Below, piece after piece: positions 25,848 through 64,000 of a stretch of 64,000 bases of DNA (the first letter of the stretch is position 1; each line of letters begins with the position of its first letter). The stretch is from NCBI GenBank assembly GCA_964435875.1, contig CAYTAV010000001.1, positions 2,318 to 66,317 on the forward strand, written 5' to 3'. The notes beneath the pieces were generated by a model that saw only the letters and a list, made by a program, of their open reading frames with translations, did not search any database and had not been told where the DNA came from. The stretch is from an uncultured Gammaproteobacteria bacterium. GTDB lineage: Bacteria > Patescibacteriota > Patescibacteriia > Patescibacteriales > CAYTAV01. A program made the position numbers and the translations under genes.

Positions 25848-26237
25848 TTATGTAGAATGCTTGTCCTTAACGCTTTTGATTAGTCCATTTATTAGCTTAT
25901 GGGTGATTATAGTATTATCTGCAATTTTATTGAAGACTTCTTTGTCGATGTATCCAAGGTCACGAGATAATAGGAGTTGATTCTGCAATTCTGTCGTAGA
26001 ACCAAGTGCGATCGAATAAAATTGAATTTTCTCTCGAGAAGATCTTCGGCTGAATCCTTCCGAAATATTTGAAGATATTGAAACCACCGCCCGTCTTAAT
26101 TGACTTACTAAACCGTATAATTCATCTTTTGGATATTTCCTTGTAAGGCAGTAAATATCGAGGGCAAGTTTATGCGCCGTTTTCCAGGCATTCAAATCAG
26201 TAAAGCTGTTAATCTTATTATTATGAGCATTATACAT
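25848..26237 (-). CDS. Four-helix-bundle protein (23S rRNA intervening-sequence / Avd-like family)
   Basis: F.DL..W..AH.L...IY..T..YPK.E.YGL.SQLRRA..SI..NI.EGF.R.S..E...FY.IA.GS..EL..QL matches the IVS/S23p four-helix family very well. Confidence 0.85.
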   Translation of the reverse strand: MYNAHNNKINSFTDLNAWKTAHKLALDIYCLTRKYPKDELYGLVSQLRRAVVSISSNISEGFSRRSSREKIQFYSIALGSTTELQNQLLLSRDLGYIDKEVFNKIADNTIITHKLINGLIKSVKDKHST

Positions 26238-26259
26238 ACTACATGATTCATTATACTTT

Positions 26260-26478
26260 CTACATGTTCACCGGATAAAACGTTATCACCCGTTTGCCGC
26301 CCCCTTCTTTCCGATAGATGACGCCGATTCCTTCCTTGTAAGCGCAGAAAAGCCTGCCACGCCGGCCGGTCTTTTCCGGACTGGCGACAGCGTCAATAAC
26401 AGCCTCGCGCGTTATAAAGACCTTGTGCTTGTTCAAAATCTCGAATTTTTGCTCCGCGTAGGAGGAGAAGGAGATCAT
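26260..26478 (-). CDS. DUF4258-like small protein (toxin-like)
   Basis: The 72-aa product has S.YAE.KF..... I.RE.V..........GR....Y........VIY....G..RVITFYP, resembling DUF4258 members that usually pair with DUF2283. Confidence 0.4.
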   Translation of the reverse strand: MISFSSYAEQKFEILNKHKVFITREAVIDAVASPEKTGRRGRLFCAYKEGIGVIYRKEGGGKRVITFYPVNM

Positions 26479-26612
26479 ATTATTTATAAGTATATATATT
26501 AAAATAAAGACAGATAAAAAGCAATTAGTGCTACAAAATAAAAAACAACTGTTAATACAGCCGCCGTTTTATGGCCACGAAAAATTTGTGAAATAAATAA
26601 TGAAAAAATTGT

Positions 26613-27266
26613 TCAAGATTTATTTTTTATTTTCCTAAAAAGAATTAATAAAGTAACGATAAATGTTATACCTATAAATAAATATAGATATTTAGGGAAG
26701 GTACTATTTTGTTTATTAATATTATACAAGACTACGGTACCATTATTAATGATTTTTTCTCCATTTGCTTTTAATGTTTGAAGTGTTTCATCGCTGTATT
26801 GCACATCCTTTCGTACACAATCAGGCATGCAAGTTGTTACGTCTTCTCCCCTTTCGTATTCACAAATACTATTTCTATTGCATTTAACATATTTTGATAA
26901 ATCGATCCTTAGCATTTCCTTTTTATTTGCATTGTCAATAATTTTGCAATAACTTGACAAACTTAGATATGGAAGTTCGATTTTGTTTAGTCCCTCTACA
27001 GGATTAAAACCAATAGAGACTATCACAGTACCATCTTTTTCATAAAAAATAATATTAAATTTTCCTTTCGTATCAATAAGTTTTTGGAATAATTCAGGAT
27101 AAATCTCCCCATCTTTTAAAAGCGACTCATTTTTATTTTTAAGTTCGAATTTATTTATACTTGAATTGTAGAATATTTGTAAAGAGAAAATATCAGCATA
27201 TACTGAATGTGGTAAAACGGTATATAGAAAAATAATAAATAATGTAAAATAAAATATTTTCTTCAT
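26613..27266 (-). CDS. Secreted or membrane-anchored partner protein C2 (hypothetical)
   Basis: Signal-peptide-like MKKIFYFTLFIIFLYTVLPHSVYA, 5 Cys in a C..C...C....C..C cluster, and a C-terminal TM anchor with a basic tail. The start is uncertain: the track gives 27299, which overlaps the upstream gene. Confidence 0.5.
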   Translation of the reverse strand: MKKIFYFTLFIIFLYTVLPHSVYADIFSLQIFYNSSINKFELKNKNESLLKDGEIYPELFQKLIDTKGKFNIIFYEKDGTVIVSIGFNPVEGLNKIELPYLSLSSYCKIIDNANKKEMLRIDLSKYVKCNRNSICEYERGEDVTTCMPDCVRKDVQYSDETLQTLKANGEKIINNGTVVLYNINKQNSTFPKYLYLFIGITFIVTLLILFRKIKNKS

Positions 27267-27270
27267 AAGC

Positions 27271-28494
27271 TTATTGATTACATTTATCATAATAATCATC
27301 TACCCTTTGGCAATAATTATTGGTGCCACATACACCGCTTGCATGACCGGGACCAGCATTGTAGCATGCAGCAAGAATACAAACCGCAGATGTGCAATTT
27401 GCAGGTGCTGTCGCTGAGCCGGGTTGACAATTTTTTATTTTCGAATAGGCATTAAGAACATTAATTCCGCATTGGATATCTTGCATTAAATCGTTACAGT
27501 CTAAGCCTTGGCAATATGATTGTCTTGTGGCTGGAATAACCTGGGAATATCCGCACTCTCCCGAGGTGCCTGGCGCGTTGCTACAACCCTCTCCTCCTAC
27601 GATAATTGATTTAACTAAAGAAGGATTAATATTATTTGCTTGGCTTAACTGGTTTATTGCGTTGTCTACTTGGGTGCATTCTCCATTATTGCAGGCTGTT
27701 CCTGGGGGTATTGAGCTTTTATTACAACAGCACCGCACCACTTCACCTCCGTAATTAGTGCCGCAATAAGAATAATCGCTGTCATTTTGCTGGTCAGTGC
27801 ATAGTGATTGCCAACTGCATCCATCAACCGGCTTGACGTTGCAGCAGCAGACCTGGCCGGTCGGAATCGGATTCGTACTTCCGCTGGTGTCAGTTCCTGC
27901 GGAGCAATCTTCCGGACTTCCATAAACATTACCGTATTCAAGACTACACTCCGATTCATCCCTAAAACCGCATCCGAATTTCCGGTCTTCTGTCGAAGCA
28001 GTGGAAATTTTTTGGATCTCTTCCTTTGCTGGGATGATGACCCGCAAGGGATTGAATTTTATCAGGTCGGGGTTGACCCAGAACATGATAGTATAAGACC
28101 CAAGAGCGAGCACAAGGCCGGTCAAGGCCGACCCAATCCAGGAGCGGGCCTCGCCGACCTTCGAGGCGTTGCCGCCGGCCGTGATCCAAATCGCCCCGCC
28201 GATGACCATGGCAACCGCGGCGACGATGCCGACGATATTGATACCCCAGTTGTAGACGACCTTGATGTATTCGGCCATCCAGGGCACGCAATAGACGTCC
28301 AACGTCTTGTCCCCGCTCTTGAAAGTGTCGCATTTCGCCGGGTCGCCGAATTTTAGCTTGTCAGAAAAGGTGATTTTCGGGTTAGGCAATGTCCATTTCG
28401 GATCTTCGGCAGATACCGAAGTTATAATAAAAAGCAAAGCAAAAATATTAATCACGCAAATCAATAGGGGGGTTAAATATTTATTTTTATTCAT
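27271..28494 (-). CDS. P3: T4SS-pilin-like (TrbC/VirB2-like) membrane core fused to a Cys-rich region and a C-terminal SLT-like lytic transglycosylase domain
   Basis: Signal peptide, then the core YNWGINIVGIVAAVAMVIGGAIWITAGGNASKVGEARSWIGSALTGLVLALGSYT. About 26 Cys follow, including two CCC triplets. C-terminal motifs are GGEGCS, GYSQVIPATRQ and AACYNAGPG. Confidence 0.7.
   Translation of the reverse strand: MNKNKYLTPLLICVINIFALLFIITSVSAEDPKWTLPNPKITFSDKLKFGDPAKCDTFKSGDKTLDVYCVPWMAEYIKVVYNWGINIVGIVAAVAMVIGGAIWITAGGNASKVGEARSWIGSALTGLVLALGSYTIMFWVNPDLIKFNPLRVIIPAKEEIQKISTASTEDRKFGCGFRDESECSLEYGNVYGSPEDCSAGTDTSGSTNPIPTGQVCCCNVKPVDGCSWQSLCTDQQNDSDYSYCGTNYGGEVVRCCCNKSSIPPGTACNNGECTQVDNAINQLSQANNINPSLVKSIIVGGEGCSNAPGTSGECGYSQVIPATRQSYCQGLDCNDLMQDIQCGINVLNAYSKIKNCQPGSATAPANCTSAVCILAACYNAGPGHASGVCGTNNYCQRVDDYYDKCNQ
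27325..27672 (-). other. SLT-like lytic transglycosylase domain within P3 (aa ~275-390)
   Basis: INPSLVKSIIVGGEGCS (compare ..A...qES.fn), GECGYSQVIPATRQ (compare GA.GLMQimp.Ta), DIQCGINVLNAY, and AACYNAGPG (compare aaYNaGpg). Confidence 0.55.
28090..28254 (-). repeat. Conserved pilin-core coding repeat, copy in P3
   Basis: About 165 nt, GC-rich, and highly similar by eye to 30004-30168 and 30792-30957. Confidence 0.8.
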
Positions 28495-28497
28495 ATA

Positions 28498-29184
28498 TCA
28501 TTCTCCTTGCGATAAGCATCTTTCTGGTGAATTAGATAGATCGTTTGGGCAACATGTACAATAGAGAGATAATGTGTTTGCATTGAATTTTTGCCAATGG
28601 CATAGGCTATTTTTCTCGCATTCTTGTTGTATAGCAGTACTATTGCATAAATATTGGCCTTTGTTTTCTTTATTATAAAATTTTGAGGCTATACATTCTG
28701 TATTGGATTCGATTTCACATCTTGATTTTAAATCCTTATCATTAATTTTATTGCAAAAAGAGATTTTTTTTAAATTATTTGCAATTTCAAAGTAGCAAAA
28801 ATTTTTATCTTCCAACATATCACATAAAATTTCATCGTTTCTTGCAATTGCAAGCTCATATATGCACCAATGCCGAATATTTTTATTTGTAATGATTTTG
28901 CACTTATTCGGTTGATTGGATGCTACAACAGTGTCCTTAATACATTGATTCCAATAATTTTCTTTATTTGGGTCACTTCTAAGCTTATCGAGAATGAGAT
29001 TGCAAATAGAAGTTTTTTTGTCCTCTTTGGCTTTATTTATGATGCATTTAACAAAAATCGAACGGTCAGTGCTTTGGCATTTTTCAAAGGTTAAATCTTT
29101 TGTTACATTTTTAATTATCAAAAAAAAGCCCGCAATAACAGTTATTATTATTCCGTAAGTAATATATTTGACATTAATAACCAT
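28498..29184 (-). CDS. Membrane-anchored Cys-rich helical-repeat partner protein C1 (hypothetical)
   Basis: N-terminal TM helix, then 18 Cys spaced every ~8-20 aa in a recurring C..I......C pattern. The gene is very AT-rich, with a 24-nt gap to P2 and a 3-nt gap to P3. Confidence 0.5.
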   Translation of the reverse strand: MVINVKYITYGIIITVIAGFFLIIKNVTKDLTFEKCQSTDRSIFVKCIINKAKEDKKTSICNLILDKLRSDPNKENYWNQCIKDTVVASNQPNKCKIITNKNIRHWCIYELAIARNDEILCDMLEDKNFCYFEIANNLKKISFCNKINDKDLKSRCEIESNTECIASKFYNKENKGQYLCNSTAIQQECEKNSLCHWQKFNANTLSLYCTCCPNDLSNSPERCLSQGE

Positions 29185-29208
29185 AATTTAAATTTAAATA
29201 CATAGGCA

Positions 29209-30393
29209 TTATCCTTTGCATTGATTATCTCCTATATGGACGTGCGTATTGTGATCAGAGCGGTATGCGTCACAACTGTTTCCACAGACACTCTCGCATC
29301 CTGAACCGCAAATAATATAAGCTCCGCTTCCTCCTCCTGCTTGGGAGCAATTGTTGTTTACAGCATTTGCGATACTACATTGTTGTTGGCAACCACTTGT
29401 ACTCCAATCTATCGCATGGTTTTGGTAATCACCAGTTTTACACCCCCAATGGCAAGAAGTACATACATGCCCGCATATACTATTGCCTCCCACGCAGTTG
29501 TTACAGCAACATGCATTTGTTGTGCAACTATTGCTAGGCGTGCCGTAACCCCCAAAACTACCAACAGATACATTGTTTTGTATGCAATCTTTTAAATCTG
29601 TTATTTTTCCTGTACCTCCATCTTTCGCGCAACAACATTGGGACAGTCCTGCCCAGTTCGTTCCGCAGTTAGACCATGAAGACGATACCTGGTCTGAAGT
29701 GCATCCCATCTTCCATTCGCATCCCTGGTTGGCGCTAACGCCGCAACAGCAGACGTTGGTGCAAACACCCGGGTCTGTCATGTCGGCCGGGCAATCGGGG
29801 GTGCAGTTGCCTATCGAACCTTCGTTAGTGACGAATCCGTATTCAGATTTTGATTCGCATTCGGATCTTGTTGATTGGTAGCAGGTGGACTCGTCGATGG
29901 TTGTGGAAGTATTGCCTGATATCGGGATAATTTCTTCCTTTGTCGGGACGGCGACGCGCAAAGGCTTGAAGCGGACCAGGTCGGGGTTGATCGCATACAT
30001 GATCGTGTATGAGCCGAGCCCGAGCAGGAGCCCGGCGAACGCTCCGCCGATCCAAGTGCGGGCTTCACCGACTTTCGAGGCGTTGCCACCGGCCGTGATC
30101 CAGATCGCCCCGCCGACGACCATGGCGATTGCGGCGATAATACCTATGATCCCGATGCCATAAGTATATATTTGTTTTAAATATACCGCCATCCAGTTGA
30201 TGCAGAGCTTTTTCGAATCGTCCGGGCAGGGGGATGGGTCGTCAAAGCTGATATTCTGGGAAAATGTGATTTTTGGGGAGGGCTTGATAAAAGCGTAAAC
30301 CGGGGAAAAATTGATAAAAAAAAGCGATATTGCACAGAACAGCATAAAAAAAAATGATAATCTTTGCATTTTGCCCGAAATATAATTTAACAT
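29209..30393 (-). CDS. P2: T4SS-pilin-like membrane core fused to a very Cys-rich ectodomain with a possible LAS-type zinc-hydrolase motif set
   Basis: Core YTYGIGIIGIIAAIAMVVGGAIWITAGGNASKVGEARTWIGGAFAGLLLGLGSYT. About 32 Cys lie downstream, including three CCC triplets. SCHWGCKTGD gives H-x6-D and HNTHVH gives HxH. An alternative start is ATG 30369 (MQRLSFFF...). Confidence 0.65.
   Translation of the reverse strand: MLNYISGKMQRLSFFFMLFCAISLFFINFSPVYAFIKPSPKITFSQNISFDDPSPCPDDSKKLCINWMAVYLKQIYTYGIGIIGIIAAIAMVVGGAIWITAGGNASKVGEARTWIGGAFAGLLLGLGSYTIMYAINPDLVRFKPLRVAVPTKEEIIPISGNTSTTIDESTCYQSTRSECESKSEYGFVTNEGSIGNCTPDCPADMTDPGVCTNVCCCGVSANQGCEWKMGCTSDQVSSSWSNCGTNWAGLSQCCCAKDGGTGKITDLKDCIQNNVSVGSFGGYGTPSNSCTTNACCCNNCVGGNSICGHVCTSCHWGCKTGDYQNHAIDWSTSGCQQQCSIANAVNNNCSQAGGGSGAYIICGSGCESVCGNSCDAYRSDHNTHVHIGDNQCKG
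30004..30168 (-). repeat. Conserved pilin-core coding repeat, copy in P2
   Basis: Nucleotide-level similarity to the P1 and P3 cores, strongest over the GGAIWITAGGNASKVGEAR-coding part. Confidence 0.75.
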
Positions 30394-63466: not shown

Positions 63467-63589
63467 CTGCAGCCGGAGATTTTATCGCTATTATTAATAT
63501 TGTACCTGCAAATTGGCTCGAAAGCCAGTTTCCTGATATAATATAGAGGCAGGATACAAATATTAGCTTAAAATATAAGAAAAAGCAAT

Positions 63590-64000
63590 ATGCTTAAAGA
63601 ATCAATTCTTTCTTTTTCAGCAATTCTTTACAGGTCCAGAACCTGCTTCTTGGCGGCGTTCATTTTCGCTTCATTATTCCTGCAGCTAGCTCAGGATGCT
63701 TGTGCGGGAGATCTCTTGAACCAGGTTACGCAAGGCCAGGCAGGGATCAGCGAGGTTGGACAGGTATTCGGCGCAAACGGAGAAAATCGCGATATCCGGG
63801 CGATCGTCGCCGCATATGTAAAGATTTTTCTCGGCTTTCTCGGACTGATCTTCATAATCATCATCATAGTCGCCGGATTCAAATGGATGACCTCGCAGGG
63901 CGACTCGAACAAGGTCGAAGATGCGCGTAAACAGCTCCAGCACGGCGTTATCGGACTCTTGATCGTGCTCGCGGCTTGGGGAATCGCCCTGTTCGCAATC
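63590..64000 (+). CDS. Canonical short T4SS-pilin-like (TrbC/VirB2-like) protein, 3' end outside the window
   Basis: My translation is MLKESILSFSAILYRSRTCFLAAFIFASLFLQLA...IFLGFLGLIFIIIIIVAGFKWMTSQGDSNKVEDARKQLQHGVIGLLIVLAAWGIALFAI. This gives a signal peptide, helix 1, a G.SNKVEDAR loop and helix 2. It is absent from the ORF track because it runs off the end of the window. Confidence 0.7.
   Translation, partial: MLKESILSFSAILYRSRTCFLAAFIFASLFLQLAQDACAGDLLNQVTQGQAGISEVGQVFGANGENRDIRAIVAAYVKIFLGFLGLIFIIIIIVAGFKWMTSQGDSNKVEDARKQLQHGVIGLLIVLAAWGIALFAI

Follow-up and report, generated by a model that had tools for sequence, protein, structure and literature searches.

A divergent, cysteine-rich SLT-fold domain fused to a VirB2-like pilin core in a Patescibacteria genome

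A large part of bacterial diversity belongs to the Patescibacteria, which live attached to other microbial cells. A 2025 survey of their type IV secretion systems (T4SS) describes arrays of VirB2-like pilin genes and finds VirB1 normally to be a separate protein, but it also notes that most genomes with VirB2-like pilins are without VirB1, the place of which may be taken by other glycosidases (PMC12102498). In the one species tested, by transposon sequencing, the T4SS and its pilin genes are essential, in a role that is unknown (PMC10633639; 2025 review PMC12857230). Pilin-enzyme fusions are mentioned in none of these three papers, and the literature on the Pfam family PF18895, on lytic transglycosylases of the candidate phyla radiation and on cysteine-rich pilins yielded nothing further on such a fusion. 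Here we describe a gene, P3, that encodes a fusion of this kind and lies in a stretch of 64,000 nucleotides (the window) of contig CAYTAV010000001.1 from a patescibacterial genome assembly. The published pilin arrays of Patescibacteria, such as that of Ca. Southlakia epibionticum, belong to the same PF18895 hairpin family and consist, like the 16 pilin-core genes of the present genome, of many divergent paralogs in tandem; however, they hold 2-11 genes for small pilins and are described with no mention of members that bear an enzyme (PMC10633639, PMC12102498), whereas in P3 the hairpin makes up just the first third of the protein, the remainder being a cysteine-rich middle module and a C-terminal domain of the fold found in soluble lytic transglycosylases (SLT; glycoside hydrolase family GH23).

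The C-terminal domain of P3 is a genuine, very divergent member of the GH23/SLT fold, and that this fold is fused to a pilin core is a conclusion in which we place high confidence. An earlier note, made from the nucleotide sequence alone, had placed an SLT-like domain at 27325-27672 on the minus strand, which corresponds to residues 275-390, on the strength of four motif blocks. All four are found exactly as quoted there, and the location and motifs thus stand, but the extent was drawn too narrowly since the full domain comprises residues 263-407 (Table 1). The SLT-like identity is borne out by transitive sequence homology, by profile-profile comparison and by fold search. With residues 262-407 as phmmer query against a library of 1.84 billion (1.84e9) representative proteins, 37 proteins were retrieved at E<=1e-3, and four of these (P0036, P0040, P0041 and P0042, at E 1e-4 to 7e-4 from the P3 domain) are clear members of Pfam SLT (E 2e-21 to 2e-25); compared directly by BLASTP, the P3 domain and P0040 match at E 2e-14. 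A profile and a structure comparison had been suggested as checks in the note, and both came out in favour of its assignment. When a family profile of 26 sequences was set against a small profile of canonical SLTs, hhalign returned a probability of 95.8% and E 7.5e-9, the match to Pfam SLT itself being sub-threshold, and the fold predicted for the domain by AlphaFold2 is lysozyme-like, with six helices and a beta-hairpin at 313-318 (predicted local distance difference test, pLDDT, 82.3; predicted template modelling score, pTM, 0.81).

When this model was compared with the PDB by Foldseek, the top 50 matches were all GH23 proteins, namely MltF, MltE, Slt, Slt70, MltC, g-type (goose-type) lysozymes and a GH23 chitinase, and, with a viral fold library included, probabilities of ~1.0 with template modelling (TM) scores of 0.6-0.68 were obtained for MltF, MltE, Slt70, goose egg-white lysozyme (GEWL) and the phage protein PRD1 P7. 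The named matches in the viral library were likewise LT_GEWL or SLT domains of tail lysins, tape-measure proteins and PRD1 P7, the last superposing at TM 0.68 and 2.8 A, and several other matches there were nameless. An identity as i-type lysozyme was considered as well and rejected, as the i-type structure 2dqa, although the top PDB match of the first family profile, was matched only at E 0.39, Pfam Destabilase gave no match at E<=10 and i-type lysozymes were not among the top 50 folds.

The fusion itself rests on a continuous gene and on its recurrence throughout the family. The P3 open reading frame (ORF) is uninterrupted, carries a GGAG motif resembling a Shine-Dalgarno sequence 8 nt 5' of its ATG, and begins 3 nt past the stop of the preceding gene. 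A Kyte-Doolittle scan delimits hydrophobic segments at residues 4-31, 77-108 and 120-138, and the hydropathy profile reproduces the VirB2-like layout of a signal peptide and two hydrophobic helices joined by the short charged loop GGNASKVGEAR, which suggests that the C-terminal tail lies outside the cell. On P3, PF18895 aligns to residues 77-131 at E 0.0075 with 16.8 bits, below the cut-off of 26.6, but this cut-off is passed by relatives in the family that have the core in common with P3 (P0038 with 28.3 and P0035 with 27.1 bits), and at E<=0.1 the Pfam model matches 27 of 36 family proteins. Searching with a hidden Markov model (HMM) of the core places it upstream of the Cys-rich SLT domain in 35 of the 37 proteins, and since the other two are N-terminally truncated fragments, the Cys-rich SLT subfamily is known only as a pilin fusion, which accordingly looks obligate. 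The covalent link to a VirB2-like core that the sequence had initially suggested is thereby upheld, and the accompanying remark that VirB1-type enzymes are normally separate proteins agrees with the published survey (PMC12102498). Between core and SLT domain, the middle module (residues 151-262) matches the protein P0001 at E 8.7e-14 and the paralog P2 at E 6e-11 by phmmer. NCBIfam gives no match for P3.

A second property that sets the domain apart is its cysteine content. Of the 28 Cys of mature P3, 14 belong to the SLT domain, 12 to the middle module and 2 to the outer N-terminal segment, the hairpin being free of Cys. Within the SLT domain, 12 of the Cys positions are retained by 32 or more of the 35 family members, as compared with 0 or 1 Cys in each of the canonical SLTs retrieved for comparison. 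The even number of Cys in each predicted extracytoplasmic segment fits full disulfide bonding, and about six to seven disulfides probably stiffen the SLT domain. The proposal of a disulfide-reinforced variant is thus strengthened as far as the cysteines go, in that they are conserved across the family and even in number per segment, while the bonds themselves stay putative. The genome encodes four DsbA-like proteins, and VKOR was not found in it. In a homologous pilin-hydrolase cluster on a 302-kb contig (L012), a DsbA-family gene (L012:7161-7895) is located directly 5' of the cluster, as would be expected if the ectodomains encoded there depend on disulfide formation.

The catalytic region calls for closer consideration, because the glutamate is not where the canonical enzymes have it. 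The strongly conserved [DN]-P-x-L-[IV]-[KR]-S-I-I helix stays in register in BLASTP, hhalign and HMMER alignments, and in all three the canonical catalytic Glu aligns with G301 and the canonical Ser with E302, amounting to a shift of +1. The GGEGC motif at 27583-27597 had been read by eye as the catalytic-Glu block, correctly in so far as an invariant E302 is present, but with a register that is off by one and that requires a one-residue gap. The further statement that the Ser after the catalytic Glu is replaced by Cys has to be given up, since E302 occupies the Ser column and is followed by Gly303, with Cys304 at +2. Although the 35 family members are otherwise only 30-50% identical, G301 and E302 are present in every one of them, and in the model E302 ends the catalytic helix 291-302. 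The residues of the substrate groove are retained nearly as strictly (G315 in 35, Y316 and Q318 in 34 each, Y378 and G381 in 33 each and N379 in 32 of the 35 members) and line up with the canonical G-[LY]-x-Q and A-Y-N-x-G motifs; R324 and R397 are conserved in the family as well. Judged from this conservation and from the model, E302 is probably a displaced but functional catalytic acid, and the P3 SLT domain is, with the same degree of confidence, likely to be catalytically active.

P3 is part of a cluster, P1-P2-C1-P3-C2, whose composition and recurrence bear on its role. P2 and P3 have a common signal peptide, hairpin and 112-aa middle module with 12 Cys, yet their tails are unrelated, as if tails had been exchanged on a chassis that stayed the same. 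The same is seen in related loci, where pilin cores bear VanY/M15, SLT and M15_4 tails (L005, in which a 3D-domain protein is also present), SLT and NlpC/P60 tails (L007), or SLT and two C39-like peptidase tails (L012). One pilin chassis hence carries interchangeable wall-degrading tails in the manner of a cassette. The SLT-pilin gene is furthermore adjacent to rpoC in L005 and L012 as it is here, and a homolog of C2 is found directly 3' of it at all four of the independent related loci (L005, L006, L007 and L012). The C2 ectodomain has 4 invariant Cys and a conserved C-N-x-N-x-x-C-E-x-E...C...D-C block, and its AlphaFold2 model, of mediocre quality at pLDDT 69, is a beta-sandwich. A fold search of the PDB with this model gave no informative match, the only one being with the N-domain of Bacteroides peptidases, a generic beta-sandwich (TM 0.37), and a word-indexed search returned no homolog of C2 beyond itself. 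None of the related loci encodes a homolog of C1.

Table 1. Features of the P3 gene and of the cluster in which it lies (positions in the window)
Feature	Coordinates	Strand	Description	Basis
P3 gene, 407 aa	27271..28494	minus	Signal peptide, short outer segment, VirB2-like two-helix core, Cys-rich middle module, Cys-rich SLT domain	
Predicted Sec signal peptide, P3 residues 1-29	28408..28494	minus	Cleavage predicted between VSA and ED	Hydrophobic stretch 4-31 (Kyte-Doolittle); cleavage site placed by eye
VirB2-like / T4SS_pilin hairpin, P3 residues 77-138	28081..28266	minus	Loop GGNASKVGEAR	Pfam PF18895 and hydropathy
Middle Cys-rich module, P3 residues 151-262	27709..28044	minus	12 Cys including two CCC triplets; common to P2 and P0001	phmmer
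Divergent GH23/SLT-fold domain, P3 residues 263-407	27274..27708	minus	14 Cys	Sequence, fold, conservation
E302 codon (GGEGC)	27589..27591	minus	Proposed catalytic acid	Invariant in 35/35 family members
C2 partner gene, 228 aa	26613..27299	minus	Signal peptide, ~165-aa beta-rich ectodomain, C-terminal membrane anchor	29-nt overlap with P3 end
C1, 228 aa	28498..29184	minus	Membrane-anchored, Cys-rich, between P2 and P3	ORF list
P2	29209..30393	minus	P3 paralog (core and middle module), different Cys-rich tail	No Pfam match
P1	30406..31344	minus	Third pilin-core paralog of the cluster	ORF list, core search

Two further relationships were considered. C1 was compared with C2 as a possible relative and is unrelated to it, and when P2 was compared with a relative bearing an M15_4 tail, the similarity was confined to the core. 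The records from which L005, L006 and L007 derive are titled 'uncultured Gammaproteobacteria' and 'Bdellovibrionales', titles that look like mislabels; one of them is a 0.9-Mb genome of the same order as that of the window, with an RpoC that is 64% identical.

The genome amounts to 1.17 Mb in 112 contigs, its relatives ranging from 0.7 to 1.4 Mb, sizes in keeping with Patescibacteria, and the cluster is flanked by ruvC/yebC on one side and rpoC on the other, with a porB-like gene also flanking. Its guanine-plus-cytosine content (26000-30000 of the window) is 0.37-0.41 as against ~0.49-0.56 in the flanking housekeeping genes; the AT-rich cluster nonetheless holds a conserved rpoC-adjacent position in relatives. 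Among 100 genomes from the same order the Cys-rich SLT domain occurs in 1, and among 400 from across the phylum in none; it is ~41% identical between genomes whose RpoC proteins are 64% identical. A separate, ordinary SLT-LysM protein without pilin core is encoded on another contig (C31:1-1488, L002); its N-terminus is twin-arginine-like (RRKFLKAAAAGA) and its C-terminal part resembles LysM. The 16 pilin-core genes include an eight-gene array of small pilins and two giants in addition to the cluster studied here. Pilin-core sites lie at C25:5373-8953, C23:423-10305, C11:11631-12206, C68:3657-4052 and 63572-64000 of the window, and the two giant Cys-rich proteins, of 876 aa and >2400 aa, open with the same hairpin. 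Translated ORFs flanking the pilin arrays on C25, C11 and C68 are housekeeping genes, with no part of a T4SS machine among them.

As to how P3 might work, we propose that the signal peptide is removed and that the two-helix hairpin spans the membrane so that its short basic loop faces the cell interior, which would place the C-terminal ~270 residues outside the cell as the 12-Cys spacer module followed by the 145-residue GH23/SLT domain. The disulfides of the latter would be made with the help of the DsbA-like proteins of the genome. The domain, having retained the substrate-groove motifs G-Y-x-Q and Y-N-x-G together with a helix ending in an invariant Glu, would then cut the glycan strands of peptidoglycan between N-acetylmuramic acid and N-acetylglucosamine (MurNAc-GlcNAc) with E302 as the acid. 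As the setting we favour contact with the wall of another cell over routine growth, with P3 acting as an 'armed pilin' effector for which C2 would be a guard or an assembly partner. That the domain is rare and diverges fast, that tails are swapped, that a dedicated partner and a separate housekeeping SLT exist and that the site is away from virB4 all argue for a specialised and probably host-directed role. On the whole we lean towards P3 being an active, outward-facing, pilin-tethered glycan cutter with such a specialised role, and somewhat more tentatively, at slightly less than an even chance, we suggest that a foreign wall is its main target; a host-directed role appears likelier to us than either a role at the producer's own wall or mere binding of glycan. 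Taken further, the VirB2-like proteins could form an enzyme-displaying filament, an 'armed pilus', in which P1, P2 and P3 co-assemble via their near-identical hairpins and present disulfide-hardened glycan and peptide cutters to the host wall, while C2-type partners protect the producer and tail swapping tracks the chemistry of the host wall. This extension is speculative, and we consider it unlikely in its entirety.

Several observations weigh against the reading of P3 as an active, pilin-borne and outward-directed enzyme. The 64-kb window contains no VirB4 gene, and the search for a VirB4/TraC-like gene turned up a single fragment, located on contig C69 (L001:697-1728), that is cut by the contig end, is sub-threshold to AAA_10 and is TraG/TraC-like by Pfam. 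The link of P3 to a T4SS or a pilus is one of name and family only, and assembly into a filament is putative. The domain taken alone scores 16.2 bits with Pfam SLT (E 0.008) as against a gathering score of 21.3, and the whole protein scores 12.7 bits (E 0.096), which is likewise sub-threshold; the alignment covers residues 279-385 and positions 2-101 of the 117 in the profile (PF01464), and just one of seven close relatives of the domain is matched by it. Neither P3 nor two family profiles have a significant sequence match in the PDB, the best being 2a5z at E 0.23, 2dqa at E 0.39 and EtgA at E 0.62, and the AlphaFold2 model of the domain was built on only 7 sequences. The fold of C2 gives no support for a known lysozyme-inhibitor fold. 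Finally, the canonical Glu column is occupied by an invariant Gly, the canonical Ser is absent and E302 stands at +1 in three independent alignments. Beside these points it may be mentioned that in the present assembly none of the pilin clusters adjoins the T4SS locus.

The alternative that survives best is a housekeeping function of the VirB1 type, in which the tethered SLT domain opens the peptidoglycan of the producer itself for a T4SS channel or pilin structure and so replaces a separate VirB1. That the genome has a VirB4/TraC-like ATPase besides its many pilin-core genes is in agreement with this notion, as is the fact that membrane-anchored VirB1-class hydrolases such as PrgK and the TraG of pIP501 are the norm in monoderms according to the literature. 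However, a domain with the distribution described above is far too rare to be a general solution to wall opening, and its locus adjoins rpoC rather than virB4, here as well as in L005 and L012. Furthermore, the arrays hold several complementary wall hydrolases, which goes beyond the needs of local wall opening, and a dedicated conserved partner gene is present. We therefore regard the VirB1-type function as a serious but rather doubtful explanation of P3, ranking behind a host-directed one.

A loss of catalysis is more improbable still. According to this explanation P3 would have kept the lysozyme fold and a glycan-binding groove and lost the ability to cut, and would serve as a peptidoglycan-binding adhesin on a pilin chassis. 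The replacement of the canonical catalytic residue by an invariant Gly, the loss of the E-S dyad and the out-of-register E302 would all be accounted for, as would the score below the Pfam SLT cut-off, and R324 and R397 could pair with E302 for structural reasons. Nevertheless, E302 is invariant in all 35 members at a level of identity of 30-50%, and it is so alongside the groove residues Y316, Q318, Y378 and N379; in the model it still closes the catalytic helix, and the tails of neighbouring proteins in relatives are enzymes with ordinary Pfam matches. The idea that the motifs match by coincidence or that the gene was wrongly annotated, for example through a frameshift joining two genes, could appeal to the non-significant single-sequence Pfam and PDB searches but is refuted by the hhalign result, by 35 independent protein clusters that show the same architecture within one ORF, by the concordance of the PDB and viral fold searches and by the unbroken P3 ORF with its ribosome-binding site.

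If P3 is indeed an active enzyme of this kind, its interest is twofold. A pilin hairpin that bears a predicted wall cutter, and a wall cutter that in this putatively disulfide-hardened form is never found unfused, provide a testable link between pilins and the breaching of walls, and an 'armed pilus', should it turn out to be true, would say in concrete terms what the essential, unexplained T4SS/pilin system of Patescibacteria is for. For enzymology, the domain represents a compact and probably very stable GH23 variant in which the catalytic Glu has apparently moved by one position.

It is finally instructive to set P3 beside the systems it resembles. Among these are the VirB1-class hydrolases, that is VirB1 of Agrobacterium, PrgK of pCF10, TraG of pIP501, TcpG and the type III secretion protein EtgA, which have a GH23/SLT-type domain that is T4SS-associated by family, as in P3; EtgA is moreover the best PDB sequence match of the family profile, though a non-significant one, and P3 is membrane-tethered like the monoderm examples. 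Yet these are separate proteins with a plain anchor, while the P3 domain is fused to the pilin-type hairpin itself, is not encoded beside virB4, has 12-14 Cys, and has its Glu shifted by one and the Ser absent. The canonical family-1 lytic transglycosylases (Slt70, MltE, MltC and MltF) and goose-type lysozyme have the fold, the G-x-x-Q and Y-N-x-G motifs and the helix-end Glu in common with P3, but the identity is ~15-20%, E-G-C stands in place of E-S with the Glu at +1, and the six to seven putative disulfides have no counterpart in the canonical bacterial enzymes.

I-type lysozymes have 14 Cys per ~120 residues. Their Cys density and an S-C-G-Y-x-Q-like block are similar to those of the P3 domain, a richness in Cys that we take as convergent. 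The GH23 lysins of phage virions, namely PRD1 P7, the tail lysins and the SLT domains of tape-measure and internal-core proteins, give the best viral fold matches of the P3 domain and follow the same logic of a wall cutter riding on a structural, penetrating component, although the likeness shown is one of fold and there are no phage genes near P3. In gene order, lastly, P3 and C2 are reminiscent of the antibacterial peptidoglycan-hydrolase effectors of T4SS and type VI secretion systems that are encoded beside their immunity genes (X-Tfe/X-Tfi and Tge/Tgi), where a wall hydrolase is likewise followed by a dedicated gene for a small, envelope-located partner. P3 differs from them in being fused to a pilin and not to a secretion signal domain, and C2, the fold of which is uninformative, is a putative partner in the same sense.

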